Assembly: GCA_046290465.1 (NCBI GenBank)
Contig: JBKAGP010000001.1
Span: 2,432,001-2,496,000 of the forward strand
Direction: 5' to 3'
Length of the DNA: 64,000 nucleotides
Source: Planctomycetota bacterium
Lineage (GTDB): Bacteria; Planctomycetota; UBA1135; UBA2386
Part shown: one piece after another, positions 24,683-44,808 of the stretch
Layout: every line of letters begins with the position of its first letter
Position numbering within the stretch: position 1 is the stretch's first letter
The notes under the pieces: model-generated
The model's database searches: none
Told to the model about the DNA's origin: nothing
Seen by the model: only the letters and a program-made list of their open reading frames with translations
Position numbers and translations under genes: made by a program

Positions 24683-25915
24683 ATGACCGGCGCCCGCCGC
24701 ATCTACCTGGACAACGCTGCGACGACGCGCCCCTCGCGCCTCGTCGTCGATCGCATGGCCGACGCGCAGCGTGAGCTGTTCGGCAACCCGAGCAGCCCGC
24801 ACGCCTTCGGCCCACCCGCCAGACGCGCCCTCGAGGACGCGCGCGAGTTCTTGCGCGGCACCGTCGCCGCCCACCGCGTGGTGTTCACGTCGGGCGGCAG
24901 CGAGGCCGACTACCTCGGCATCGTCGGCGCCGCGGCGACCCGGCCGTCGGGCCGCGTGCTGATGAGCAAGGCCGACCACCCGGCGCTGCTCAAGTGCGGC
25001 GGCCTGCTGGCGCGCTATCGCCACCACGTCGCCGAACTGGACGTCACCGAGGACGGCGACATCGCCCCGGAGACGCTGTTCGACGCGCTCGGCAGCGACG
25101 TTCGCGTGGTCGCGCTGATGTACGGGCACAACGAGCTCGGCACGCTGTGCAAGCTCGGCGAACTGATCGAGCTGACCCGCCGCTCGGCGCCGCAGGCCCA
25201 CATCCACGTCGACCTGGTGCAGACCTACGGCAAGCTGCCGTTCGACTTCGACGAGTTCGACGTCGACTCGATCGCGGTGTCGGGCCACAAGTTCCACGGC
25301 CCGCGCGGCGCCGGCTTCCTGGCGCTCGCCGCCGAGGCCAAGCTCGCGCCGCTGCAGGAGGCCGGCGGCCAGGAGGGCGGCCTGCGCGGCGGCACCGAGA
25401 ACGTCGCCGGCGCGGTCGGCCTCGCGGTCGCGGCCGAGGAGATGCTGACGCACCAGTCGGAGACCGAGGCGCACACGCGCGATCTGTGCGACCGCGTGTT
25501 CGACATCGTCGCCGACGCCGTGCCCGGCGCCGAGCGGCTCGGCCACCCGACGCGCCGCCTGCCGCACATCCTGTCGCTGCGCCTGCCGGGCGTCGTCGGC
25601 GAGACGCTGATGACGCGCTGCAACAAGCACGGCGTCGCGTTCTCGATCGGCTCGGCGTGCCACGGCGCGGACGACCCCAAGGCCGAGCCGAAGAAGAAGC
25701 CGCGCAAGCACAAGGGTCCCGACAACCACGTGCTGGCGGCGATCGGCATGACGCGCGAGGAGTCGCGCGAAGTCGTGCGGCTGTCGTTCAGCGGTGAGAC
25801 CGGCGTCGACGACGCCGAAGACGCGGCCGACATCGTCGCCGACGAAGCCGTGCGCCTGCTCGAGTCGGCGCCGAAGCCGCGCAAGCAGCCGGCCGGCCGG
25901 GAGCAGGCTCGGTGA
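24683..25915 (+). CDS. Cysteine desulfurase (IscS/NifS family)
   Basis: YLDNAATT, GNPSS.H, FTSGGSE, SGHKFHGPRG, R.GTEN, GSACH. Confidence 0.9.
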   Translation: MTGARRIYLDNAATTRPSRLVVDRMADAQRELFGNPSSPHAFGPPARRALEDAREFLRGTVAAHRVVFTSGGSEADYLGIVGAAATRPSGRVLMSKADHPALLKCGGLLARYRHHVAELDVTEDGDIAPETLFDALGSDVRVVALMYGHNELGTLCKLGELIELTRRSAPQAHIHVDLVQTYGKLPFDFDEFDVDSIAVSGHKFHGPRGAGFLALAAEAKLAPLQEAGGQEGGLRGGTENVAGAVGLAVAAEEMLTHQSETEAHTRDLCDRVFDIVADAVPGAERLGHPTRRLPHILSLRLPGVVGETLMTRCNKHGVAFSIGSACHGADDPKAEPKKKPRKHKGPDNHVLAAIGMTREESREVVRLSFSGETGVDDAEDAADIVADEAVRLLESAPKPRKQPAGREQAR

Positions 25916-28515
25916 GCGGCACCAAGGCGAAGGGCAAGACGCCGGCGATGAAGCAGTTCGACGCCGCCAAGGAACAGCATCCGGACGCGATCCTGTTCTT
26001 CCGGATGGGCGACTTCTACGAGCTGTTCCACGACGACGCCAAGGTCGCGGCCAAGGCGCTCGGCATCACGCTGACCGCACGCGGCAAGGGCGAGAACGCG
26101 ATCCCGATGGCCGGGGTGCCGGTGCGCGCGGTCGACGGCTACCTGCGGCGGCTGGTGCAGATGGGCCACCGCGTCGCGATCTGCGAGCAGATGCAGGACC
26201 CCAAGGAGGTCAAGGGCGTCGTCGAGCGCGCGGTCGTGCGCGTCGTCACCCCTGGCACGCTGACCGAGGACAACCTGCTCGACGGCCGCCGCAGCAACCA
26301 CCTCGCGGCGGTGTGCTTCTCGAAGGAACGCTGCGGCATCGCCTGGGTCGAGCTGTCGACCGGCGCGTTCTACGTCGTCGAGGTCGAGCACCATCGCCTC
26401 GCTGACGAACTGGCGCGCATCGAGCCCGCCGAGCTGTTGCTGGCCGAGGACCAGCGCGGCAAGGACCAGAGCTGGCTGCCGCAGACGCGCACGCCGATCG
26501 CCTACCGCGCCGGCTACGACTTCGGCGCCGAGGGCGGCACGCGGCTCCTGCAGGACCACTTCGCGGTCAAGACGCTGCGCGGCTTCGGCATCGACGACGC
26601 GCCGCTCGCGATCGGCGCGGCCGGCGCGCTGCTGGCGTACCTGCAGGAGACCCAGCAGGGGGCGCTGCCGAACCTGCGACGGCTCGAGCTGTGGCGCGAC
26701 GGCACGTTCCTCGGCCTCGATCGCACTACCAGGCAGAGCCTCGAGCTGGTGCAGACGATGCGCGGTGGCGAGGGCACGCCGCTGCTGTCGATCCTCGACC
26801 GCTGCGACACGCCGATGGGCGCGCGCCGGCTGCGCGCGTGGCTGCTGTCGCCGCTGGCGCAGCTCGACGCGATCCAGGCGCGGCAGGACGCCGTCGCCGA
26901 GATCCACGCCGACTCCGAGCTGCGTTCGCTGGTGCGCGACCGCCTGTCCCAGGTGCTCGACCTCGAACGGCTGTCGTCGCGCGCCGCGTTCGGCCGCGCC
27001 AACGGCCGCGACCTGGTCGGCCTGCGGCTGAGCCTCGAGCAGCTGCCGATCCTGCGCGAACGGTTCGCGTCATGCGCCAGTCGGTTGCTGCGCGAACTCG
27101 GCGAGGCGCTGGACCCGCTGCCCGAACTCAACCAGGCGATCGCCGCTGCGATCGTCGACGAGCCGCCGACGACCATCAAGGAGGGCGGCGTCATCCGACG
27201 CGGCTACCACCAGGAGCTGGACGAGCTGCGCGACCTCGCCAAGGACAGCACCGAGTTCCTGGCGCGCTACCAGCAGCGGCTGGTCGAACAGACCGGCATC
27301 TCGACGCTCAAGGTCGGGTTCAACCGCGTGTTCGGCTACTACATCGAGGTCACGCACACGCACAGCGACGTCGAGCTGCCGGCGGAGTTCGTGCGCAAGC
27401 AGACCACCAAGAACGCCGAGCGCTACATCACCGACGAGCTGCGCGAGCTCGAGACCAAGATCCTCAAGGCCGAGGAGAACAGCAAGGCGCTCGAATACGA
27501 GCTGTTCAACGGCCTGCGGGACCAGGTCGCGCAGGCCGTCGACCGCCTGCAGGCCACCGCGCACGCGGTCGCCGACGTCGACGCGTGCAGTTCGCTGGCG
27601 ACGGTCGCGATCGAGCGTGACTACTGCCGGCCGACGCTCGACGAGTCGCGCACGCTCAAGCTCGAGGACGCGCGCCACCCGGTGCTCGAGGCCACCCACG
27701 CCGCCGGTTCGTTCGTCGCCAACGACACCGACCTGGAGCCGCCACAACGCCGGCTGGTGCTGCTGACCGGCCCCAACATGGCCGGCAAGTCGACGTGGAT
27801 CCGCCAGAACGCGCTGGTCGTGATCATGGCGCAGATCGGCAGCTACGTGCCGGCCAAGAGCGCGCACATCGGGCTGTGTGACCGCGTGTTCACGCGGGTC
27901 GGCGGCGCCGACGACATCAGCCGCGGCGCGTCGACGTTCATGGTCGAGATGACCGAGACGGCCAACATCCTCAACAACGCGACCGACCGCAGCCTGGTCG
28001 TGCTCGACGAGGTCGGCCGCGGCACCAGCACCTACGACGGCATGTCGCTGGCGTGGGCGATCGCCGAGGACCTGCACGAGCGCATCGGCTGCCGCGCGCT
28101 GTTCGCGACCCACTACCACCAGCTGATGGACCTGGCCGGACCGGACCGCGGCATCGTCAACTGCCGCGTCGCGGTCCGCGAATGGGGCGACGAGATCGTG
28201 TTCTTGCACCGCATCGAGCAGGGCGGCACCGACCGCAGCTACGGCCTGCACGTCGCGCGCCTCGCGGGCATCCCCAAGCCCGTTCTCGAGCGCGCCCAGA
28301 CGGTGCTCACCAAGCTCGACGACGAGGGCGACGAGGTCCGCGAAGCCCTGGTCGCCGAACCGGCCCGCCACAAGGCCGGCCCCCAGCAGCGCGAACTGTT
28401 CGCGCCAGCCCCCGAACCGGTGATCGAGGACCTGCAGAACCTCGACCTCGACGACATGACCCCCCGTCAGGCCGTCGAATGGCTGCGCGACCAACAGTCC
28501 CGCCTGCGAAAGTAG
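25912..28515 (+). CDS. mutS: DNA mismatch repair protein MutS
   Basis: FRMGDFYELF, TGPNMAGKST, STFMVEM, DEVGRGTS, SYGLHVA.LAG. Confidence 0.97.
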   Translation: MSGTKAKGKTPAMKQFDAAKEQHPDAILFFRMGDFYELFHDDAKVAAKALGITLTARGKGENAIPMAGVPVRAVDGYLRRLVQMGHRVAICEQMQDPKEVKGVVERAVVRVVTPGTLTEDNLLDGRRSNHLAAVCFSKERCGIAWVELSTGAFYVVEVEHHRLADELARIEPAELLLAEDQRGKDQSWLPQTRTPIAYRAGYDFGAEGGTRLLQDHFAVKTLRGFGIDDAPLAIGAAGALLAYLQETQQGALPNLRRLELWRDGTFLGLDRTTRQSLELVQTMRGGEGTPLLSILDRCDTPMGARRLRAWLLSPLAQLDAIQARQDAVAEIHADSELRSLVRDRLSQVLDLERLSSRAAFGRANGRDLVGLRLSLEQLPILRERFASCASRLLRELGEALDPLPELNQAIAAAIVDEPPTTIKEGGVIRRGYHQELDELRDLAKDSTEFLARYQQRLVEQTGISTLKVGFNRVFGYYIEVTHTHSDVELPAEFVRKQTTKNAERYITDELRELETKILKAEENSKALEYELFNGLRDQVAQAVDRLQATAHAVADVDACSSLATVAIERDYCRPTLDESRTLKLEDARHPVLEATHAAGSFVANDTDLEPPQRRLVLLTGPNMAGKSTWIRQNALVVIMAQIGSYVPAKSAHIGLCDRVFTRVGGADDISRGASTFMVEMTETANILNNATDRSLVVLDEVGRGTSTYDGMSLAWAIAEDLHERIGCRALFATHYHQLMDLAGPDRGIVNCRVAVREWGDEIVFLHRIEQGGTDRSYGLHVARLAGIPKPVLERAQTVLTKLDDEGDEVREALVAEPARHKAGPQQRELFAPAPEPVIEDLQNLDLDDMTPRQAVEWLRDQQSRLRK

Positions 28516-29636: not shown

Positions 29637-30596
29637 CTAGCCGCCCTTCCGCACGGGCTCGCCCGGCATCATCAGCGGCATCAGCAGGGCGGCCAGCTGG
29701 CCGACCGCGTTGCGCACCCGGCCGAGGTCCATGCGCACCACCAGGTCGGTGCCGTGGGTCTCGAACTGCGCCCCCTTCATCACCTTGCGAAGCGACAGGA
29801 ACCGGCGGTCTTCAGCCAGCGCCGCGACCCGCGCCTCGGCCGCCTGGCGGCTGATCGCGAGGCCGTCGCCAGCGCGGGCGTGCCGCAGCGAGACCTCGAC
29901 GACCAGGTGCGGATCGTCCTCGTCACCGCGCACCAGCACCTGCATCCCGAAGAACGTCGGTTCGTCGTTCTCGGGCCACTCCGGCTCCTCGAGCAACGCA
30001 CCGAACTGCCGCCGCACGTTCGGGTGCGACATCGAGCCGACCATGTAGGCGAGGCGGTCCTCGCGCCCCGACAGCATCGACATCACGTCCGCCGACGGCA
30101 GGCCGACGTGCCGCTCCTTCTCGAGGATCGGCTGCAGCACCGCCAGCGAACCCTCGACGTGCACGTGCGGGTGCGGCACGTAGAAGATGCGACCCGAGTC
30201 GAAGCGCTCGCGGTAGCGAACCTGCTTGCCGCCGACCTCGCGGTCCTCCCAGATGCCGCCGGTGACGCGCGGCGGCAGCGCCAGCGGCTGGTTGCCCTCG
30301 GTGACGAACACCTCGAGCGAGTCGCGCACGAAGTCCTTCGACCCCTTCGGCATCCGGGTGGCGACCGTGAACCGATCGACGGCGTCGAGTTCGAAGCCCG
30401 ACTCCTTCTCGATCATGCCGAACAGCATCTTCAGCGCCGACGCCTGCAGCTCGTCCCAGACCTCGCGCTCGCGCATGCGCTTCAGGTCGACGGACATCGT
30501 GTTCTCGTAGCTGGAGAACAGGAAGTCCTTGGCGGTCGGCGGCTGCTGGGCCACGGCCAACGACACGCACGATAGCACCGCAGCGACGAGGCGCAC
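29637..30596 (-). CDS. Secreted hypothetical protein, paralog A
   Basis: Signal peptide; collinear similarity to the adjacent 30598-31677 ORF. Confidence 0.75.
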   Translation of the reverse strand: MRLVAAVLSCVSLAVAQQPPTAKDFLFSSYENTMSVDLKRMREREVWDELQASALKMLFGMIEKESGFELDAVDRFTVATRMPKGSKDFVRDSLEVFVTEGNQPLALPPRVTGGIWEDREVGGKQVRYRERFDSGRIFYVPHPHVHVEGSLAVLQPILEKERHVGLPSADVMSMLSGREDRLAYMVGSMSHPNVRRQFGALLEEPEWPENDEPTFFGMQVLVRGDEDDPHLVVEVSLRHARAGDGLAISRQAAEARVAALAEDRRFLSLRKVMKGAQFETHGTDLVVRMDLGRVRNAVGQLAALLMPLMMPGEPVRKGG

Positions 30597-30597
30597 G

Positions 30598-31677
30598 CTA
30601 TCGGCCTCCGCCCTGCTTCTTGCCGGGGCCCTTCTCGGCCTTCGGCGTCTCGGCCTGCGGCTCCTCGACCGCCTCTTCCTCGACCACCTCGACCGCCTCG
30701 AGTTGCGCCGGCATCGCCTGCGCCGCGCGGGCTACGAACAGGAACGGCGCCATGCCGCCGAACATGCCGCCCGCGTTGCGCGCGCGGCCGATGTCCGTGC
30801 GCCAGACCGCGTCGCTGCCGCTGCGTTCGTGCTCGATGTGCTTCAGCATCGGCCGGAACATGCGCGCCTCCGGCATCTTTCGCAGCTCGTCGAGCCTGGC
30901 TTGCACCGCCTTCTCGGTCACCGCGAGCCCTTCGCCCGGCGTGCCGTGGCGCAGCACCATCTCGACGGTCAGGTGCGGGTCGTAGTCCTCACCGGTCGCG
31001 CGCACGCGGAAGCACGCCATCAGCGGCCGGTCGCCCTCGGGCCACTCGGTGTCCGGCAGCGCCTCGGCGAGCATCTTGCTGGGGCCGTCCTCGACGGTCA
31101 GGTCGAGCACGCAGTAGGCGACGACGTCCTTGTGCCCGGCGGTGAACGCCATCACGTCCGCCGACGGCAGCCCGGTGCGCGGCTGTCCGTCAATCACCTC
31201 GCGCAGCAACCGCTGCGGCCCGTAGACGTGCAACTTCGGCGAGACGATGGCGAGGTCGTCGCTCCACCCCCAGCGATGCGAGTAGAGCTCGCACGCGCCG
31301 ACGTCTTCGCGCTCGTATTGGTCGAGGTCGGTCGGCCGGTCGAACGGCGCGTTGCCCTCGATGACGACGACTTCCTCGAAGGCCGCCGGCTCGCCGGCCG
31401 GCTGGTAGCGGCCCGCGGTCATCGTCACGGTGTCGAGCTCGTCCGGCGAGAACCCGAGCTGCTCCTGCATCATGCCGAACACCATCTTCATCGTGGCGAT
31501 GTTCAGTTCGTCCCAGACGCCGGTACTGCGCAGCTTGCGCATGTCCAGGTGCACGACGGTCCGGTAGTCGTCGAACAGGAACTGGCGCGCGGTCGGGGGC
31601 TTCTGGGCGGCGGCACCAACACCGAGGGCGCAGACACCGAGGGCGCAGGACGTGACAAAGGTCAGGGCTCGCATCAT
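30598..31677 (-). CDS. Secreted hypothetical protein, paralog B
   Basis: Shares PPTA..FLF, VWDEL, GLPSADVM, DPHL.VE..LRH and D.GR.RNA with paralog A. Confidence 0.75.
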   Translation of the reverse strand: MMRALTFVTSCALGVCALGVGAAAQKPPTARQFLFDDYRTVVHLDMRKLRSTGVWDELNIATMKMVFGMMQEQLGFSPDELDTVTMTAGRYQPAGEPAAFEEVVVIEGNAPFDRPTDLDQYEREDVGACELYSHRWGWSDDLAIVSPKLHVYGPQRLLREVIDGQPRTGLPSADVMAFTAGHKDVVAYCVLDLTVEDGPSKMLAEALPDTEWPEGDRPLMACFRVRATGEDYDPHLTVEMVLRHGTPGEGLAVTEKAVQARLDELRKMPEARMFRPMLKHIEHERSGSDAVWRTDIGRARNAGGMFGGMAPFLFVARAAQAMPAQLEAVEVVEEEAVEEPQAETPKAEKGPGKKQGGGR

Positions 31678-31927: not shown

Positions 31928-33218
31928 AGCGCAACGGGGCCGCGTGCTCGCGCACGCGGAAGGTCGAACCACCGGAGTAGAACACCACCCCAGAAGCCGA
32001 AGCTTCAACGGGGCCGCGTGCTCGCGCACGCGGAAGGGTGCCCGGTGTGCGTGTTGGAGCTGGCATCGCTGGCGCTTCAACGGGGCCGCGTGCTCGCGCA
32101 CGCGGAAGGGCCCCGGCATCGTGTCGGCCGGGATGGTGTAGCCGTAGCTTCAACGGGGCCGCGTGCTCGCGCACGCGGAAGGTTCAAGGTGCTCGAGGGG
32201 GCGGCGGGGAACACGCCGGTGCTTCAACGGGGCCGCGTGCTCGCGCACGCGGAAGGGCCGAGGCGATGCCGGGCGGCATCCTGATCGACCCGTCGCTTCA
32301 ACGGGGCCGCGTGCTCGCGCACGCGGAAGGCAGCAGGAACAGGGCGACGAGCGCCCACTTGATGCGATGGCTTCAACGGGGCCGCGTGCTCGCGCACGCG
32401 GAAGGGTCGATGACGACCTCGAAGCTGCGCGCCTCGACCTCGCGGCTTCAACGGGGCCGCGTGCTCGCGCACGCGGAAGGCGGCCGGCTGATCTCCTGCA
32501 GGTGCGGCGGCAGGTGCTCGCTTCAACGGGGCCGCGTGCTCGCGCACGCGGAAGGCTCGTCGATGGCTGCCGCTACCACGAGGAAGTGCTCGGGCTTCAA
32601 CGGGGCCGCGTGCTCGCGCACGCGGAAGGTCGGCCGCGAGGCCGCGTCCGTAGAGCAGGAGACCAAGCTTCAACGGGGCCGCGTGCTCGCGCACGCGGAA
32701 GGCATCGCTGCGGCATCCAACGAGTGGATGAAGTTGGGGGCGCTTCAACGGGGCCGCGTGCTCGCGCACGCGGAAGGAAACCGTCGAGGAGTCGATCGAG
32801 AGCGTGATCGATCAGCTTCAACGGGGCCGCGTGCTCGCGCACGCGGAAGGCCCCCGACGCTGCGGGAGGCGGTGGCCGGTGTCCTGGCTTCAACGGGGCC
32901 GCGTGCTCGCGCACGCGGAAGGTTGCGCTCGACTTCCTCGCGATCTTCCTCGCCCATCAGGCTTCAACGGGGCCGCGTGCTCGCGCACGCGGAAGGTAGT
33001 TCGCCTTCAGGTTGATGAAGTGCCACCCTTCCTCGCTTCAACGGGGCCGCGTGCTCGCGCACGCGGAAGGCTTCGAGCAACTTGCGCAGCGCAACCGTGG
33101 TCTCTTGCGCTTCAACGGGGCCGCGTGCTCGCGCACGCGGAAGGCACCACGCCAGCTCGATGGCGGACCAGTCGAGCATGTCGCTTCAACGGGGCCGCGT
33201 GCTCGCGCACGCGGAAGG
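31928..33218 (-). CRISPR. CRISPR array: 18 repeats (36 bp; CCTTCCGCGTGCGCGAGCACGCGGCCCCGTTGAAGC on minus strand) and 17 spacers of 36-39 bp
   Basis: Repeats start at + coordinates 31928 (degenerate), 32002, 32074, 32147, 32221, 32295, 32370, 32445, 32520, 32594, 32667, 32742, 32815, 32887, 32961, 33035, 33109, 33183. Internal hairpin CCGCGTGC/GCACGCGG. TTGAAGC 3' end and the degenerate trailer repeat give the orientation. Confidence 0.99.
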
Positions 33219-33404
33219 AGCCCGCCCAGTGTCACCCATGGCAGCGCCGTTTCCGCAGCGTACCGCGAGCGACCCTTGCCGGGCGAGCCGGGCAAGGTGT
33301 CGACAAGGTTGCCAGACAATGTGTAACCCATGATTTCACAGATCGTTCGAGTGACAGCCGGTGATTCGACACCGCGCTACCGCTCGATCTGCCGACCGCC
33401 CCTG
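33219..33404 (-). promoter_or_regulatory. CRISPR leader
   Basis: Non-coding, more AT-rich segment between the cas2 stop and the first intact repeat; opposite end from the degenerate repeat. Confidence 0.75.
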
Positions 33405-33710
33405 TCATACCACGAAACGCCGTCCGGGCGGAGCATAGGGTTGTCCCAAGACCTCGATCTGATCGAGTACCGGATGCGTCGCCAGTCCGAGTCCCACGAG
33501 CATGACCTGGTCCTCGGTCTGGTGGATCAGACCCCGCAGGTGCTCGCGCAGTTGCACGAGTTCACGTCGGTCCAACTCGCAGACGAACACGCTGTACTGA
33601 ACGTGGTTACCGAAGTCGCGACACGTCTCGAAGACCTTGTTGCGACGTTTGTCGTCACGGATGTCGTACGCCACCAACACATGGTGGCGGCTCGTCGTTC
33701 GATGGCTCAT
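33405..33710 (-). CDS. cas2: CRISPR-associated endonuclease Cas2
   Basis: LVAYDIRDDKRR..V...C.DFG.HVQYSVF.C.L; overlaps the cas1 stop. Confidence 0.95.
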   Translation of the reverse strand: MSHRTTSRHHVLVAYDIRDDKRRNKVFETCRDFGNHVQYSVFVCELDRRELVQLREHLRGLIHQTEDQVMLVGLGLATHPVLDQIEVLGQPYAPPGRRFVV

Positions 33711-35434
33711 CGCGTCACCATCCCGTGGTAATCCGGCATATCCCCACGCAACCACCGAGCGAAGAGACGCACCTGCATCCGGACGATGGACCGCCACGAG
33801 CACCGGTAGCCGAACAGCGGATGCGTCACCAGCAGGTCGAGGCGAGCCTCGAACGCGCGGATCATCGCCTTGCGGGTGCCGGGGAGCATCATGCAGGCTG
33901 CCTTCGACTGCCGAAAGCCCTTCGCTCCGACCATGCCCGTGTTGACTGCGGACAGCACCGCGCTGTCCGCGATCAGCGGACGGAACTCCTCCATCAGGTC
34001 GAGCGCCAGCGACGGTCGCCCATGCCGGGGTCGGTGGTACAGCCCCCACCAAGGATCGAGCCCCTCCGAGAGGATCGCGACCGTCAGTTCCTTGGCGAGC
34101 AACGCGTACGTGAAAGACAGCATGGCGTTGATTGGATCGCGCGGCGGGCGCCGGTTTCGATGCTCAAACTCCCATTCCGTGCTGAGGTCACGCGGCTTGA
34201 GCATGCGACCGAAGTGGCGGAAGTAGATCGCTGCGCCGTTGCCTTCAAAGCCGAGCAGGCTATCTACCGAGGTGACCTTCTCCACGTCGCGTAGCACCTG
34301 AGCGAAGTCGCTGACTACGTGCGCCGGCAGGTCGACCGCGTTGCGTCGCAACAGCGTGCGTTGGTTCGAGACCTTTGCGGCGACGACCTGCCGTGCGAAG
34401 CGGAGCGCACGGTCCGCGTCACCGGCCACGGCGAACTGCGCGGCGCGGTCGTATGCGTTGCGCAGGTTCATGCCGTGAGTTACGCCGTAGAACCAGTGGC
34501 CGCGCGACAAGTAGACGACCGGGATCCCCGCCTCGCACAGCACGTGGAGGGTCTGCGTCGTGACCTGGACGTTTCCGCACACGACCAGTTGGCTCACGTC
34601 GATCAATCGGAACCTGCCCAGTTGCCCGTCGCGGTTGCGGACCACGAGGCTCTTACCGGATTTGCCGACCGTTGCCCCCTGCTCCTGGACGTAGAGCGGC
34701 ACGGCTTCGTCTCGGACCGGATAGAGGCGCCTGGGCTCTGCCGCGCCTTCCGGCGGAGCGCCAGCCGCCAGCGCCAGGGTCTCGTCCGGAAGGCAGATCC
34801 CGCTGAGGGAGCATCCGTTGCACTTCGGGCTGTCTTCGAGCGGCACCGGTAGCGAAGTAGCCGCCGCGGCCAGACGAGCCCGCTCGATCCAATCCAGGGT
34901 CGACGCCTCGAGTTCGGACGTGAAGGGGATCACGACGCGCGTGCGGCTGGCTCGGAAGTAGAGGTAGCCGTGGGTGCATACGTATCCGTGCTCGCGTAGC
35001 AGCAGGCCCTGGGCCATCAACTGGACCCGCTCGGGCTCATACGAGCGATCAGGCACATCAGGAACACGGCCGCGCTTGGTCTCGACCGGCACGGCCTCGT
35101 CCTCGACGGTCGAGACGAGGTCCAGTTTGGCAGACAGGCCCAACGTGTCACTGGACAACGACACGGAGCGACTGATCGTCGGCGGGTCGTCCCCACTCGC
35201 CTCGAGACCCTCGTCGCCCCCTGCACGACCTGTCGCGTCGGGGAGAACGTGCTCGAAGTCGTCCACTCGCCGATGAGCAGCCTGCCCTTCGAGTGTGTAG
35301 TGGTTGTCCTCCCAGCGCCCCTCCACATGCATCAGATGGAACAGCCGCGGGCAGTACACGAACTCGTTCAGCATACGGACCGGAATCACGCCCGGACCAG
35401 CCTGCTCCGCTCCCTGTGTCATTCCACGCTCCAT
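33707..35434 (-). CDS. cas1: Cas4-Cas1 fusion (type I-G)
   Basis: Cas4: YCPR, KLD...PVETKRG, CNGCSLSGICLP. Cas1: LLGFEG..A..YF, RRPPRDPINAMLSF.Y, LALDLMEEFRP. Confidence 0.96.
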   Translation of the reverse strand: MERGMTQGAEQAGPGVIPVRMLNEFVYCPRLFHLMHVEGRWEDNHYTLEGQAAHRRVDDFEHVLPDATGRAGGDEGLEASGDDPPTISRSVSLSSDTLGLSAKLDLVSTVEDEAVPVETKRGRVPDVPDRSYEPERVQLMAQGLLLREHGYVCTHGYLYFRASRTRVVIPFTSELEASTLDWIERARLAAAATSLPVPLEDSPKCNGCSLSGICLPDETLALAAGAPPEGAAEPRRLYPVRDEAVPLYVQEQGATVGKSGKSLVVRNRDGQLGRFRLIDVSQLVVCGNVQVTTQTLHVLCEAGIPVVYLSRGHWFYGVTHGMNLRNAYDRAAQFAVAGDADRALRFARQVVAAKVSNQRTLLRRNAVDLPAHVVSDFAQVLRDVEKVTSVDSLLGFEGNGAAIYFRHFGRMLKPRDLSTEWEFEHRNRRPPRDPINAMLSFTYALLAKELTVAILSEGLDPWWGLYHRPRHGRPSLALDLMEEFRPLIADSAVLSAVNTGMVGAKGFRQSKAACMMLPGTRKAMIRAFEARLDLLVTHPLFGYRCSWRSIVRMQVRLFARWLRGDMPDYHGMVTR

Positions 35435-35683
35435 GGTCGCCTACCGTTCTGGTTTCGCGAACAATCGGCACGGGAGTCATGCGGCCTCATACGCCGAGTG
35501 GCGAATCAAGCCTGCCGCAATGTCCGGCGTCGATACAGATCAGGCACACCACATGACTTGAAGGCGGGCCGGACGTAGCTATGCTTCCGTCGGTCTCGGC
35601 TACTGCCGCACGACGCAATTTGATATGGGAACGAGGACGGACACGACCACGCCAGGTCACCGCACGTGCGCGGGGTGCCATCC

Positions 35684-38285
35684 ATGACCGTGGCCACCCA
35701 ACGCAACACCTGGTTGCGAGCTGCACTGGGCGGCCGCGAGCCACTTCCGTGGCAGGATCGCCTGCTGTCCCGCATGGAGCGAGGTGACCTTCCTTGCGCA
35801 CTCGACCTGCCTACGGGGTTGGGCAAGACGTCGGTCATGGCCATCTGGCTCGTGGCTCGTGCTCTCGGGGCCCCGGTGCCGCGCCGCCTGGTCTACGTAG
35901 TGGACCGCCGAGCTGTCGTGGATCAGGCGACCGAGGTCGCCTCGGAGCTACGGGAGCTCGTCGATGCCGCCCCCCAACTGCGGGACGCCCTGGGACTGGA
36001 GGGCCCTCTCCCGATCTCGACCCTGCGCGGCCAGTTCGCCGACAACCGACGCTGGCTCGCGGACCCGTGCGCACCGGCGATCATCGTCGGAACCGTCGAC
36101 ATGGTGGGGTCCCGACTGCTGTTCGAAGGCTACGGCGTCTCGCGTCGCATGCGCCCCTTCCATGCCGGCATGCTCGGCGCCGACACGCTCTTGGCGCTCG
36201 ACGAGGCGCACCTCGTCCCTCCGTTCGAACGGCTCGTCACCGCGATCGCGAACGGCGCGGAGACCTTTGGTCCAGTGCAGGCCGACCTGATTCCAGCGCT
36301 CCGTGTCATGTCGTTGTCGGCCACCGGGAGCACGTGGGATCAGCCCCTCGTACTCGACGACGCAGACCGTGCCCACGACGTCGTGAAGCAGCGGCTCGGC
36401 GCAGCGAAGCACCTCGTCGTGCGCGACCCGGTCGAGCAGAAGGGACTCGTCGACCGACTCGCCGACGAGGCTTGGGAGCTCTGCCACCGAGGATCCCGTC
36501 CGGCTCGCTGTCTGGTCTTCACCAACGGCCGTCTCGTTGCCCAGCAGGTCCGCGATGCGCTCGTCAAGCGGACCGGTTGCGATGTCGGCCTGTTCGTCGG
36601 TGCACGCCGCGTCTTCGAGCGGCAGGCGGCGGCAAGCTGGCTCCGGCATCACGGCTTCCTCGCCGGATCGAGCGACCCGCCGGACAAGCCGGTGTTCCTG
36701 GTCGCGACAGCGGCGGCCGAAGTCGGTGTCGACCTCGACGCGACCCACATGGTGTGCGATGTCGTCGCCTGGGAGCGCATGGTGCAGCGGCTCGGGCGCG
36801 TCAACCGACGCGGGACCGGAACCGCGCAGATCGTCGTCGTCTCGGAGATCCGCAAGGACGACGATCGCACTCCTGGTGTTCTGGCGCTGTTGGACGAGCT
36901 CCCCGTCCACGATGACGGTAGCCGCGATGTCAGCCCGGGAGCGCTCGTAGACCTCAAGGCCGGCGCGAACGACAAGCTGCTGCGCCGGATCGCGCAGGCC
37001 AGCACCACACCGCCGCTACACCCACCGCTGACGCGCGCCGTCGTCGAGTCCTGGTCGATGACGTCCCTCGAGGAGCACACCGGACGTCCAGATGTGGCAC
37101 CGTGGATCCGTGGCTGGATCGAAGACGACGTCCCACAAGTGAAGCTCGTCTTCCGGAGCCACTTGCCGATCGATGCAACCGGCCAGCTCTTGCCAGAGCA
37201 CTCCGTCGAGGCCTACCTGGAGGCCGCACCTCCGCACTTGAAGGAAGTGCTCGAGACCGACACGTCGCTGGTCGTCAAGTGGCTCGACTCGAGACGGAAA
37301 CGGCTGGCAAAGAATCGGCGGGCCGATGACGAAACCGCGCACGACATCGACGACCTCTCGATCGTCGGACTGCTCATCGGCCGCACGCCGTCCCTGCGAA
37401 GGCCGATCACGCTCGGTGCGGTGGCGGGCTCGAAGAAGGACCTCGAACGCGACCTCGCCGGCGGCACGCTGCTGCTCGACGCGCGCATCGGTGGCCTGAC
37501 GGACGGACTGCTCGACGATTCCTCCGACGAAGCCACCGATGTAGGCGAACTGGACGAGAACGGTGCGCGCGCCCTGCCGTTCTCGATCGTGCGTAGCGGG
37601 GAGCCGATGCTCGACGACGACCTGCGCGAAGAAGCTCGCATCCCGACGGCGTGGCACGAGGGCGACGAGACCGAATGGTTGCTGATCGGCAGCCTGCGTG
37701 AGGTTTCGGCAGAGTCCGAAGACGGTCGCTCCGTCGCGCCCCGCCGCGCACAGTTGCTCGACGAGCACCAGGCCTGGACCGAGACCATCGCCACGGAGTT
37801 GGCGCAGCGCCTCGGACTGCCCGAACCGTTGGCGCGCACCCTGAAGCTGGCGGCGCGGCTCCACGACGAAGGCAAGCGCGCGCACACCTGGCAGCGCGCC
37901 TTCGGTGTCCGTGAGGACCAGCTGAAGCGAGGCGAGGTCTACGGCAAGACGACGTCACGACCCAATCTCGCGCTGCTCGCCCGCTACCGGCACGAGTTCG
38001 GCTCGCTGCCGCGGGCCGAGGAGGATCCCCGGATGGATCTGCCGCCGGATCTTCGCGAGCTGTGCCTGCACCTGATCGCGGCACACCACGGCTTCGCGCG
38101 CCCGCTGATCCGCACCGACGGCGCCGAGGGTCCACCGTCCACGCTGACCCACCGAGCCCGGGAGGTCGCACTTCGCTTCTCGCACCTCGAACGCACGTGG
38201 GGGCCGTGGGGCCTGGCGTGGCTGGAGGTGCTGTTGCGCGCTGCCGACCAGCAGGCGTCACGCCGCAACGACGAGGAGGGCGCGC

Positions 38286-38293
<8 letters not shown>
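35684..38293 (+). CDS. cas3: Type I-G Cas3 helicase with C-terminal HD nuclease
   Basis: PTGLGKT, YVVDRR, GTVDM.GSRLLF, DEAH, QRLGRVNR; C-terminal LHDEGK, RHE, HHG, RAADQ. Confidence 0.95.
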
Positions 38294-40255
<1,962 letters not shown>

Positions 40256-40256
40256 G

Positions 40257-42395
40257 ATGAGCCGATACCTCGTCCTCACTCTGCACCTGCACGACCGGTT
40301 CCACGGAATGGCTCCGGACGGACCGGAGTGGCCACCGTCACCGGCTCGGGTGTTTCAGGCCCTCGTGGCAGGCGCCTCGCGCGGCTGCGGCGTCCCCCCC
40401 GCGGTCACACGCGCACTGCAATGGCTGGAGTCGTTGCCGCCTCCTGTGATCGCTACGCCGCGCGCTACGCTGGGCAGCCGCTTGCATCTGTTCGTGCCGA
40501 ACAATGATGCCGACACGCTGCGAGATCCGCGCGACGTCGGCGACATCCGCGTGCCGAAGCTGGTGCACCCGCGACTGCTCGAATCGGGCACTCTCCTCTA
40601 CGCCTGGCAGATCGACGCTGACCCCGAAGCTCATGCGCAAGCGGTCATCGCTACGTCCGAGCAGCTCTACCAACTGGGCCGCGGAATCGACATGGCGTGG
40701 GCATCAGCCGAACTGCTCGACGAGAAAGCCCTCACCGAACGCCTGGACTCTTTCCACGGCGACATCCATCGACCCGAGCCGCGCAGCCAGACGAACTCGC
40801 TGGCCTGCCCGGCACCGGGCACGCTGAAGAGCCTCGAGAGCCGGCACTCCGCGCAACGGATCCGAACCGAACCGGCGGGACGCTCGACGCAGAGCTACTT
40901 CACCAACGCGCCCAAGGCCCGGTTCCGACAGGTCGGCTACGCGCTGACAGTCCGCAGGCTTGTCTACGACCTGCGGCGCAGCGACGAGCCGAGCAGGGCG
41001 ATCGCGATCCGCCCTTCGCAAGCCACCACGCTCGTCGAGCGTGTCCGCGACGCCGCAGCGCTCCGCTTGCAACGCGCCGCCCCCCACCAGACCCCAGACG
41101 TCGAGCGGTGCCTGATCGGTCGCAAAGGGCACGAAAACGGTGGCGGCTCCCCCGCCGACCGGGTCCGCATCGTCCCTCTACCCTCGATCGGCTCGCCTCA
41201 CGCCGATCGTGGCATCCGACGCATCCTGGTCGAGATCCCCGGCACAGCGCCACTGCCACCCGACGACGTCGAATGGGCTTTCTCCGGCGTTTCGCCTGTC
41301 GATCGCGCGACCGGCGAGGTCGACGCCAGGGTCGTGCTCGTGCGGGCGGATGACGGCAAGATGCTGCAGCACTACATCACGGCCTCCACCCGGTGGCGCA
41401 CCGTGACTCCAGCCGCCCTGCCAGAACGTGCGTCGCGGCGCCGGATCGCACCCGACAGGATCGACGAACAATCGAAGGGCGCGACGGAGCGCCGCGCCGA
41501 AGAGGCGCGCGCGCTCGTAGCGGTGCGCGACGCGCTCCGCCACGCCGGTGTCCGCGCATCCGTCATCGGGGCCCACGTCCAGCGGGAGCCGTTCGAACCC
41601 AGGGGACTCCGTGCCGAGCAGTTCGCGCACGCACCGCGATTCGTCAAGGAGCGGCTCTGGCACGTCGAACTCGACTTCGGCGAACGCGTCGATGGGCCGC
41701 TCGTCCTGGGTGACGGTCGGTTCCTCGGCCTGGGTGTGATGGCACCCGCTGATGAGCCCCGATGCGGCGTCTACGCGTTCGGAGCCGATATCGACTCCGG
41801 CACCCCGGAAGGCCTGGCGCGCGCGCTGCGACGCGCGGTCATGGCGCGGGCACAGCAGGCGCTCGGCAGGCGCCCCCTGCCCCCGAGCTTCAGCGGTCAC
41901 GAAGCCGACGGATCCCCAGCCCGTGGAGGCCGGCACCTCGCTTTCCAGGTCGATCTCGTCAACGATCGCCTGCTCGTTGTGGCCCACGAATCGACCAAGA
42001 GGAGCGACATCGATCTGCTCGAAGCGGCGCTCGACGGACTGTCGGTGCTCAAGGCCGGCGCCGCCGGAACGCTGCGGTTGCACCGGCAGGCCATGACCGG
42101 CGAGGACCCGGTACTTCGCCCTTCACGGTGTTGGGCGTCGGCCAACGACTACACCGTCACGCGCCACACGAAGGGCTCGGACCCCGAGCAAGCCCTGAAG
42201 GACGACGTCGTGCGAGAGTGCGTGCGCCGCGGCTTGCCTACTCCCTTGGTCAACATCTCGAGTCTTCTTGGCGTACCGAAGCGCGGACTCTCGGGTCGGC
42301 TGGAGTTGACTTTCTCGCGCCCCGTTCATGGCCCGGTTCTTCTCGGGCGAACACGGCACCGTGGAGGAGGACTGTTCGTGGCAGGGCAGCAATAG
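40257..42395 (+). CDS. csb2: Csb2 (Cas5-Cas6 fusion), extended ~712-aa form
   Basis: EWPPSPARVFQALVA, WLE.LPPP.I, FVPNND, LGRG; two G-rich Cas6-type loops. Confidence 0.92.
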   Translation: MSRYLVLTLHLHDRFHGMAPDGPEWPPSPARVFQALVAGASRGCGVPPAVTRALQWLESLPPPVIATPRATLGSRLHLFVPNNDADTLRDPRDVGDIRVPKLVHPRLLESGTLLYAWQIDADPEAHAQAVIATSEQLYQLGRGIDMAWASAELLDEKALTERLDSFHGDIHRPEPRSQTNSLACPAPGTLKSLESRHSAQRIRTEPAGRSTQSYFTNAPKARFRQVGYALTVRRLVYDLRRSDEPSRAIAIRPSQATTLVERVRDAAALRLQRAAPHQTPDVERCLIGRKGHENGGGSPADRVRIVPLPSIGSPHADRGIRRILVEIPGTAPLPPDDVEWAFSGVSPVDRATGEVDARVVLVRADDGKMLQHYITASTRWRTVTPAALPERASRRRIAPDRIDEQSKGATERRAEEARALVAVRDALRHAGVRASVIGAHVQREPFEPRGLRAEQFAHAPRFVKERLWHVELDFGERVDGPLVLGDGRFLGLGVMAPADEPRCGVYAFGADIDSGTPEGLARALRRAVMARAQQALGRRPLPPSFSGHEADGSPARGGRHLAFQVDLVNDRLLVVAHESTKRSDIDLLEAALDGLSVLKAGAAGTLRLHRQAMTGEDPVLRPSRCWASANDYTVTRHTKGSDPEQALKDDVVRECVRRGLPTPLVNISSLLGVPKRGLSGRLELTFSRPVHGPVLLGRTRHRGGGLFVAGQQ

Positions 42396-42545: not shown

Positions 42546-42659
42546 TCAGCGCCCCGCCATCACCACGATGAACCAGGCGGTCACCGCCACGATCAGCGTC
42601 ACGGGGATGAGGATGATCCAGCCTGGGCGGCGGCCTCGGTTTGCGGCGTCTTCGGTCAT
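42546..42659 (-). CDS. 37-aa single-TM small protein coupled to lptG
   Basis: ATGA overlap with the lptG stop; MTEDAANRGRRPGWIILIPVTLIVAVTAWFIVVMAGR. Confidence 0.45.
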   Translation of the reverse strand: MTEDAANRGRRPGWIILIPVTLIVAVTAWFIVVMAGR

Positions 42660-43735
42660 GAGCGGGTGCTGCCGAACAGTACGACGCCGAGCGACCCGAA
42701 CACAATGGTCGGAGTCCACGCCGCGACGATCGGGTGCAGCCATTCGCGCTGGCCCAGCCGCTGGCAGACCAGGTCGAGCAGGAAGTAGCCACCGCACATC
42801 GCGATCGCGGCCAGGATCCGGTCGATGCGGCTGCCGCGCTCGTAGCGCACCGCCATCGGCAGCGCCAACAGCAGCAGCAGCAGGTTGGCCAGCGGATAGG
42901 TGATGTGGCGATGCAGCGCCAGCCGCACGTCGGCGCGGTTCGGGCGGGCCTCGATCAGTTCGACGAGGTCCGTGTAGGACATCGTCTCCGGATCGACGGT
43001 CTCTCGCGACTGCTGCAGCAACACCTCCGGCGTCACGTCGGGACGTTCGAGCCAGGTCTGGTCGTGGCGACCGTCACGGCGATCGAGGCGGCCGTCCTCG
43101 AGCGACCAGTCGCCGCGCTCCGCGTCCCAGGAGCCGAGCCGGGCGCTGATCAGCGTCGCGTCGGCCGCGAGCGTCCCCTGGATCAACAGCCGCACGTCGT
43201 GCATCTGCTTGTTCACCGGGTCGTACTCGCGCACGTACATGTACTGGCTGACCTCCTCGTGGCTCTCGTGCACGAGGAACTTCTGCATCGAACTGCCCTG
43301 CCGCAAGAACGTCTCGTTGGTCGCCAGCGCCGCGCCGACGTGCGGCACCACCCACTGCCAGCTCGACACCATCAGGATCGCGCCGAGCGCGCCGCACCAC
43401 AGGATCGGCGCGAGCACCCGATGGATGCTGCGGCCGACGAACAGCATCGGCACGATCTCGTTGGCGCCGTGCAGCCGCGCCACCGCGAACATGCCGGCGA
43501 TCACCGTCGCGAACGGCGTCACCGTCGTGACCAGCACCGGCAGCAGCTTGACGTAGTAGAGGCCGAGGTAGGCCGCCAGTTGCATGCCGCCGAGGTCTTC
43601 GCTGGCGGCGCGCTCGGCGTAGCGCGGCAGGTTGTTGAGCAGGTCGACGAGGATCGACAAGAACAGGAAGAACAGCAGCGACGCGAGGAACGCGCCGAGC
43701 ACGATCTTGCCGACGTAGCGATCGAGGCGGCTCAT
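42656..43735 (-). CDS. lptG: LPS export permease LptG family
   Basis: MSRLDRYV, 3+3 TM layout, NEIV.M...G.S..R, LHPIVAAW.P. Confidence 0.85.
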   Translation of the reverse strand: MSRLDRYVGKIVLGAFLASLLFFLFLSILVDLLNNLPRYAERAASEDLGGMQLAAYLGLYYVKLLPVLVTTVTPFATVIAGMFAVARLHGANEIVPMLFVGRSIHRVLAPILWCGALGAILMVSSWQWVVPHVGAALATNETFLRQGSSMQKFLVHESHEEVSQYMYVREYDPVNKQMHDVRLLIQGTLAADATLISARLGSWDAERGDWSLEDGRLDRRDGRHDQTWLERPDVTPEVLLQQSRETVDPETMSYTDLVELIEARPNRADVRLALHRHITYPLANLLLLLLALPMAVRYERGSRIDRILAAIAMCGGYFLLDLVCQRLGQREWLHPIVAAWTPTIVFGSLGVVLFGSTRS

Positions 43736-44808
43736 CGACGCAGCTGCCTCCACACCAGCGGCACGCCGATCGCGGTCAGCAGCACCACCGGCATCCAGCC
43801 GCACCACGGGTTCTTGGTCGAGATCAGCAGCCGCGCGCCGAGCACCTCCCCGAGGTAGAACATCGCCAGCGGCACCAGCGCCATCACCAGCGCGACGACG
43901 CGGCCACGGAAGCGCGCCATCTCGGCGATGCAGAAGCCGATCGGCGCCAGCAGCGCCGGCATCAGCGCGAAGCAGCAGCGGCGGAACAGCGTGTAGGTCG
44001 CCTTCTCCGGTTCGCGGTGCACGCCGCGCATGACCTCGGCCAGCAGCTGGTCGCTGCGCACGTCGTCGTCCTTCTCGGCGCGTCCGCCGCTCGAGCCGAT
44101 CTCGTCGAGTGGCACCTGGAACTCGAGCGTGTCCGGCGACATCCCGCCGATCGGGTCGCGCACGCCCGACAGCACGATGCTCAGATCGCTGTTGACCGCC
44201 GACTCGTCGAGCGGCGGCACCGATACGCGGTCGACGTAGACGATCGGCGATTCGAGGTCCCTGCCGATCGGCTTCGGCGAGTAGATCGTGCAGTCCAGGT
44301 AGTCGCCGGTCTCCTTGTCGCGTTCGCGGAACGTGACGATGTAGCCGGTGTCGAGCACCTTGATGCGGTCGCCGCCGAGGTTGAGGTTCATGAACGCGCT
44401 GCGCACCACGTCGGCGATCACGCGGTACTTGCGGAAGTGCACCTCGGGGATCAGGTAGTGGTTGGCGAACGACGCAGCCACCGACAGGAAGATGCCGATC
44501 AGCACCGCCGACAGCATCGGCACGCGCGGCGAGATCCCGGCGGCGCGGATCGCGATCAGCTCACGGTCCTGGGCGGCCCGCGTGAACGTCATCACGGTCG
44601 CGATCAAAAACGCGATCGTCAGCAGGTGCGGCAGCGCGTCGAGCGCGAAGAACAGCGTGATCAGCGCCGCGTCGAGCAGGCCGCCGCCCTGCGAGCGCTG
44701 GATGCCGCGGTAGACCAGCGAGATCAGCACCACCGCGAACATCACGGTGAACGTGATCGACGCGTTGACCGCGAGTTCCTTCAGGTAGTATCGGTGCAGC
44801 CGCCACAT
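43732..44808 (-). CDS. lptF: LPS export permease LptF family
   Basis: LHRYYLKEL, DRELIAIRAAGIS; coupled to the lptG-like gene. Confidence 0.85.
   Translation of the reverse strand: MWRLHRYYLKELAVNASITFTVMFAVVLISLVYRGIQRSQGGGLLDAALITLFFALDALPHLLTIAFLIATVMTFTRAAQDRELIAIRAAGISPRVPMLSAVLIGIFLSVAASFANHYLIPEVHFRKYRVIADVVRSAFMNLNLGGDRIKVLDTGYIVTFRERDKETGDYLDCTIYSPKPIGRDLESPIVYVDRVSVPPLDESAVNSDLSIVLSGVRDPIGGMSPDTLEFQVPLDEIGSSGGRAEKDDDVRSDQLLAEVMRGVHREPEKATYTLFRRCCFALMPALLAPIGFCIAEMARFRGRVVALVMALVPLAMFYLGEVLGARLLISTKNPWCGWMPVVLLTAIGVPLVWRQLRR

Follow-up and report, generated by a model that had tools for sequence, protein, structure and literature searches.

We identified a CRISPR spacer in a planctomycete genome that reads, in frame and over its entire length, as a conserved block of the single-subunit RNA polymerases of the T7 family. 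The spacer, here called S7, very probably derives from the polymerase gene of an unsampled, GC-rich, T7-like tailed phage, virulent or temperate, that entered this host or a recent ancestor. S7 occupies 32703..32741 on the minus strand of the window (the whole stretch of 64,000 nucleotides that was analysed), is 39 nt long, and is the seventh of 17 spacers counted from the cas2 or leader side. It is flanked by two identical 36-nt repeats, also on the minus strand (32667..32702 and 32742..32777). The reverse complement of the spacer is GCCCCCAACTTCATCCACTCGTTGGATGCCGCAGCGATG, which translates as APNFIHSLDAAAM. An earlier sequence-only reading of this region had given the same coordinates, sequence and translation, which are correct, and the spacer falls exactly between two repeats.

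The array that carries S7 (31928..33218, minus strand) comprises 18 repeats of 36 nt, separated by 17 spacers of 36–39 nt, each of which is unique within the array. The repeat reads GCTTCAACGGGGCCGCGTGCTCGCGCACGCGGAAGG on the plus strand and is identical in 17 of the 18 copies; the degenerate copy is the leftmost, at 31928, at the far end from cas2. The host genome consists of one contig of 6,594,045 bases with 70.2% G+C, and no other array with this repeat was found in these 6.59 Mb. Between cas2 and the first repeat is a putative leader (33219..33404, minus strand), in which G+C dips to 0.56–0.59. A scan of this interval for sigma-70-type promoters found none, and a scan of the array flanks for promoters and terminators likewise found nothing. 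The minus-strand repeat terminates in GTTGAAGC, and Rfam gave two CRISPR-DR16 matches on the same strand, both below threshold (19.1 bits against a gathering score of 35). The degenerate repeat far from cas2, the repeat end and the strand of the CRISPR-DR16 matches together suggest a minus-strand reading of the array, and transcription is predicted from this strand. With this orientation S7 is seventh from the leader, and its crRNA would carry the sense sequence of the source gene. Long arrays with resembling repeats are present in four other genomes of the same phylum (G311:C2:20192-23716, G280:C20:50592-54509, G218:C190:56368-61039 and G296:C23:12865-14400), with 64–77% identity over array-length alignments, so that this family of repeats occurs more widely in the phylum.

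The genes beside the array, judged by their profile matches, make up a complete type I-G (formerly I-U) system. Two are on the minus strand immediately upstream of the array, namely cas2 (33405..33713; PF09827 at 1.9e-20, TIGR01573) and a cas4g/cas1g fusion encoding the adaptation nuclease-integrase (33707..35434; NF049935, 702 bits against a cut-off of 560), in which the Pfam models for both Cas1 and Cas4 are matched. Four are on the plus strand: the helicase-nuclease gene cas3g (35666..38293; TIGR02621, 610 bits against a cut-off of 400), cas8g2 of the GSU0052 family (38286..39179; TIGR04106, 178 bits against a cut-off of 125), csb1/cas7g (39176..40255; TIGR02570, PF09617) and csb2, a Cas5/Cas6 fusion (39921..42395; TIGR02165, 299 bits; PF09609). 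The true start of csb2 is probably near 40250, since the open reading frame matches the profile only from its residue 116 onward. All six models score above the curated NCBIfam cut-offs, and the Pfam matches are concordant. Housekeeping genes border the CRISPR-Cas island, with mutS on the left (25912-28515, plus strand) and lptF/lptG-type permeases on the right (42656-44808, minus strand). To the left of the array, on the minus strand at 29637-31677, are adjacent open reading frames of 319 and 359 amino acids that look like tandem paralogues, having several segments in common at ~74% identity and 1057–1069 nt apart. A Pfam search matched neither of them.

The evidence for the origin of S7 begins with its peptide. 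A pattern fixing all 13 residues and leaving the wobble positions free was searched in IMG/VR, where this 39-nt pattern matched no contig, in the JGI metagenomes, where it matched one contig (L001), and in the GTDB genomes, where it matched two contigs from Mucispirillum (L002 and L003). In each of these three records APNFIHSLDAAAM is encoded in frame within a single-subunit RNA polymerase gene, and the polymerase open reading frames are called phrog_414 by PHROGs (E 2e-191 in L001 and 2.5e-247 in L002). With 13 of 13 residues identical in L001, L002 and L003, the spacer is upheld as an in-frame piece of a block conserved among the single-subunit RNA polymerases of the T7 family. At least 119 IMG/VR contigs encode the shorter PNFIHSLDA.

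The nucleotide sequence leads to the same genes. BLASTn against viral metagenome databases had been proposed as a check in the sequence-only reading; with the 39-mer and 50,697 phage records BLASTn gave matches in 29 records, and the partial matches concentrate in RNA polymerase genes. Twelve of the 20 rows listed are inside annotated RNA polymerase genes, from phages of Synechococcus, Mycobacterium, Caulobacter, Sphingomonas and Aeromonas, and a thirteenth, the unannotated H1, translates as polymerase. The top listed row (29/32 nt) is in Ralstonia phage YO103_7, an unannotated member of the Autographiviridae, whose translation at the match, GMAPNFVHSMDAAHL...HDDYGT, is that of a polymerase. 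All of the good partial matches are in polymerase genes and in the frame given above, so neither another gene nor another frame, either of which the sequence-only reading had named as counting against it, has come to light. In a tblastx comparison of the full set of 17 spacers with 36 loci containing T7-like genes, only S7 scored (E 1e-4). None of the other 16 spacers, which served as a control, fell below E 0.05, and the best of them (E 0.054) involved a low-complexity stretch. In the polymerase frame the G+C of S7 is 7/13, 6/13 and 11/13 at the first, second and third codon positions, the pattern typical of coding sequence from a GC-rich genome, and the third-position value fits a source as GC-rich as the host.

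These results also bear on the idea that an unrelated sequence merely happens to translate like the polymerase block. A full-length protospacer was not found in the collections searched, which is in favor of such an accident. Nevertheless, we consider it very unlikely, given that all 13 residues match three polymerase genes at the homologous site, that the matches at the nucleotide level fall mainly in polymerase genes, from phages unrelated to each other, that the codon-position G+C fits the polymerase frame, and that 0 of 16 control spacers behave like S7.

The position of the block within the T7 enzyme was established through the L001 polymerase, which aligns with T7 RNA polymerase (chain 1aro_P) at E 1.9e-95. 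In this alignment glAPNFIHSLDAAAMrmtt of L001 pairs with giAPNFVHSQDGSHLrktv of T7, and when residues are numbered backward from Asp812 in HDSFGT, the block comes to lie at positions 779–791 of T7. By way of L001, the spacer peptide can be aligned without gaps to this segment of the gene 1 product, APNFVHSQDGSHL, with 8 of 13 residues identical; the T7 sequence quoted in the earlier reading is correct according to the same alignment. The block holds His784 and Asp787, and Asp812 is located 25 residues after Asp787, outside the spacer. The sequence-only reading had named the block motif C and placed it around the catalytic Asp. This is wrong, and we rejected the label for S7: motif C of T7, HDSF with the catalytic Asp812, is downstream and is absent from the spacer, which covers just 39 nt. 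According to a review, D537 and D812 coordinate the catalytic Mg2+, and H784, which hydrogen-bonds the ribonucleotide 2'-OH, is highly conserved in phage-like RNA polymerases (PMC11617373). The related claim that the spacer targets an essential catalytic motif is sound in that the block is conserved and close to the active site, and fails in that the catalytic Asp812 is not encoded. The conserved target site is most simply a by-product of PAM position, rather than of selection for an "essential motif".

Phage-type polymerases are also found in organelles, and the block of mitochondrial RNA polymerase likewise reads PNFIHSLD. Over this region the two kinds of enzyme are homologous, with E values of 1e-67 to 1e-74 for the L001 polymerase against mitochondrial chains. 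S7 might in principle derive from a eukaryotic organellar phage-type RNA polymerase gene, or from a mitochondrial linear plasmid, by way of environmental DNA. However, organellar enzymes probably have Pro for the first Ala and SSHM for AAAM, the exact peptide was seen in phage-like contexts only, and type I adaptation samples DNA replicating inside the cell. An organellar source is thus as improbable, in our judgment, as a chance resemblance, and a phage gene is the preferred origin.

The sequence-only reading had taken the host for a probable planctomycete, and this is supported by three features that characterize the group: a 16S signature, the absence of FtsZ and an expansion of PSD1/DUF1553 proteins. 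The host 16S genes contain the target of probe PLA886 with no mismatches and that of PLA46 with one mismatch. No FtsZ/tubulin domain (PF00091) was found in the one-contig genome, which is 94% complete by marker count, whereas 13 of 14 control genomes were positive. The genome encodes 13 PSD1/DUF1553 proteins. A search for DUF1559 gave no match in it, but also none in any control, and is uninformative as a phylum marker. The two 16S copies (G000:C1:47076-48633 and 3302736-3304293) differ at 3 of 1558 positions. Their EUB338 target region, ACTCCTACGGGAGGCTGC, has one mismatch to EUB338-I and two to the planctomycete variant EUB338-II, so that neither standard probe would match perfectly.

A protospacer for S7 was sought in viral, plasmid and cellular sequences. 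The nucleotide sequences of L001, L002 and L003 share just 29–31 of 39 nt with the spacer, and the closest PNFIHSLDA locus in IMG/VR, among the at least 119 matches listed, shares 33 of 39. The exact first 21 nt of S7 occur in one IMG/VR contig that diverges thereafter (APNFIHSLDQTAM), the exact middle 23 nt in six contigs (with at most 32/39 nt), and the exact last 24 nt in none. BLASTn against 72,556 plasmids gave chance-level matches only (E 6 or worse), none of them in an annotated polymerase. In the host genome, with up to three mismatches allowed, S7 is present solely as the spacer itself, which indicates that the source was foreign and that S7 is neither a self-target nor a piece of a resident prophage. 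Nor was a long self-match of any spacer of the array found among the host matches listed. When the whole array was compared with 400 genomes of the phylum, S7 was unmatched among the 150 of 314 rows listed. Against five GC-rich viral records the array gave matches to S7 only, and against the phage collection no spacer besides S7 did better than E 1e-2. Amino-acid-level patterns for S1, S3 and S15 had no matches in IMG/VR. With no match above 33/39 nt, neither a phage nor a gene order or PAM can be assigned, and the host-virus link drawn in the sequence-only reading is not shown.

A TTN PAM has been reported for type I-G in a preprint (bioRxiv 10.1101/2022.08.08.503147). Together with a minus-strand crRNA, such a PAM would require the codon before the first Ala of the block to be TTN. 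The residue preceding the block in the 119 listed IMG/VR relatives is most often Ile (46), followed by Ala (21), Ser (17), Val (17) and Thr (13), with Leu (3), Gly (1) and Met (1) being rarer. Within the phylum, the polymerase of genome G143 does have TTC (Phe) ahead of the block. The codon after the block is CAA in some of the listed relatives, which would fit a plus-strand reading only. With TTN before the block in 0 of 119 relatives and CAA after it in 15 of 119, we rejected inference of the PAM from relatives as uninformative.

Around the polymerase genes with the identical peptide the gene order is T7-like. In L001, L002 and L003 the polymerase is followed by a gp2.5-like single-stranded DNA-binding protein, an endonuclease or RusA, and a primase-helicase, and in L002 an exonuclease and a T7-type portal come after the primase-helicase. 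For the gene-order and PAM check suggested earlier, a T7-like order was seen in these three records, which at 29–31/39 nt are not the protospacer, and no PAM is readable. The modules of L002 and L003 are inside Mucispirillum contigs of 54 kb and 116 kb (at ~470-12300 of L002) and include an Ant-like anti-repressor. The gene content of the Mucispirillum module with the exact APNFIHSLDAAAM suggests a temperate T7-like phage.

T7-like elements are also visible within the phylum of the host. Of 401 genomes of the phylum, 12 gave a match to the polymerase domain PF00940 (RNA_pol); it was found in neither the host genome nor the 23 searched genomes of its order. In G343 (L158, C168) and G391 (L159, C229) the polymerase is beside a T7-type portal (PF12236, phrog_449). 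In G175 (L161, C1:1262000-1281999), on a closed 3.4 Mb chromosome, genes for helicase, primase, polymerase, portal and major head protein occur together, and by its gene content this module looks like an integrated T7-like prophage. T7-like modules are likewise present in the closed genomes G139 and G209. The polymerase blocks of the phylum are variants of that in S7 (APNFVHSIDAAHM, PNLVHSLDAAHM and others). T7-like elements can thus already be seen in the phylum, and none of those found is the source of S7.

One of these loci raises the question of whether the polymerase gene need have come from a phage. In G249 (L156, C22:66000-80869) the polymerase adjoins a serine recombinase and a tyrosine integrase, cell genes (TetR, AcrB) are nearby, and no phage structural gene is present in 14.9 kb. 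S7 could accordingly have been taken from a mobile element with a T7-type polymerase, such as an integrative element or a plasmid, rather than from an infecting podophage. We regard this as unlikely, although less so than the chance and organellar explanations. The exact-peptide records have T7-like replication genes, and a portal in the case of L002; in G343, G391 and G175 the neighbors of the polymerase include T7-type portal or capsid genes; and the search of 72,556 plasmids gave matches at chance level only. A T7-like tailed phage is therefore retained as the preferred source.

S7 is a real and ordinary spacer, very probably a trace of past infection by a phage that was not found in the collections searched. 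Based on the genes present, the following course of events can be proposed. The Cas4g/Cas1g-Cas2 complex would have excised a PAM-flanked prespacer from the DNA of the phage and integrated it next to the leader; with six further spacers acquired since then, it would now occupy seventh place. If the system is currently active, as we infer, the array would be transcribed on the minus strand and Csb2 would cut the repeats. The predicted S7 crRNA has a 5' handle ending ...GAAGC, followed by GCCCCCAAC. This is the sense sequence of the polymerase gene, so the crRNA would be complementary to the template strand of the DNA rather than to the mRNA. A type I-G Cascade of Cas8g, Cas7g and Csb2 would then form an R-loop at the template, and Cas3g would degrade the phage DNA. 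As the target is the protein-constrained His784 block, escape by the phage would be largely limited to synonymous or PAM changes.

The spacer is a pointer to a kind of phage, T7-like and GC-rich, that attacks bacteria with almost no cultured phages, and it may be of use in guiding phage isolation or the mining of metagenomes. A literature search on phages infecting Planctomycetes found little, which is consistent with few described phages in the phylum and is not proof of it. We lean slightly toward the view that S7 is the first trace of unsampled high-GC T7-like podophages infecting the FtsZ-less, 70% GC planctomycetes of the host's order. If so, T7-like phages, some of them temperate, would be a regular component of the planctomycete virome, a reading based on S7 and on the polymerase-portal modules in ~3% of the genomes of the phylum, including apparently integrated copies in closed chromosomes. 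The understanding of CRISPR and of T7-type polymerases is unchanged by S7.

Phages have already been assigned to Planctomycetes by spacer matches (PMC9040852). The logic applied here is the same as in such spacer-protospacer assignments, where a spacer records a past encounter. The link provided by S7 is protein-level homology to a gene family with no phage genome, and hence it names a kind of phage, not a phage. The T7-like elements of the phylum (G175, G343, G391, G143, G249 and others) have a variant of the same polymerase block, in several cases beside T7-type portal or capsid genes. In contrast to the exact-peptide records, they share only 26–28 of 39 nt and 8–10 of 13 residues with S7, and none is in the order of the host (0/23). 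A TTN/TTC PAM has been reported for other type I-G systems; no protospacer was found here with which to compare it. The set of cas genes is the same as in the type I-G systems of Geobacter sulfurreducens, Thioalkalivibrio sulfidiphilus and Methanosarcina barkeri, with Cas3g, Cas8g2, Csb1/Cas7g, Csb2, Cas4g/Cas1g and Cas2 being common to both. The repeats are alike as well: the 36-nt repeat described here ends in GTTGAAGC, and that of the M. barkeri type I-G system ends in ...ATTGAAGC (PMC10504553).
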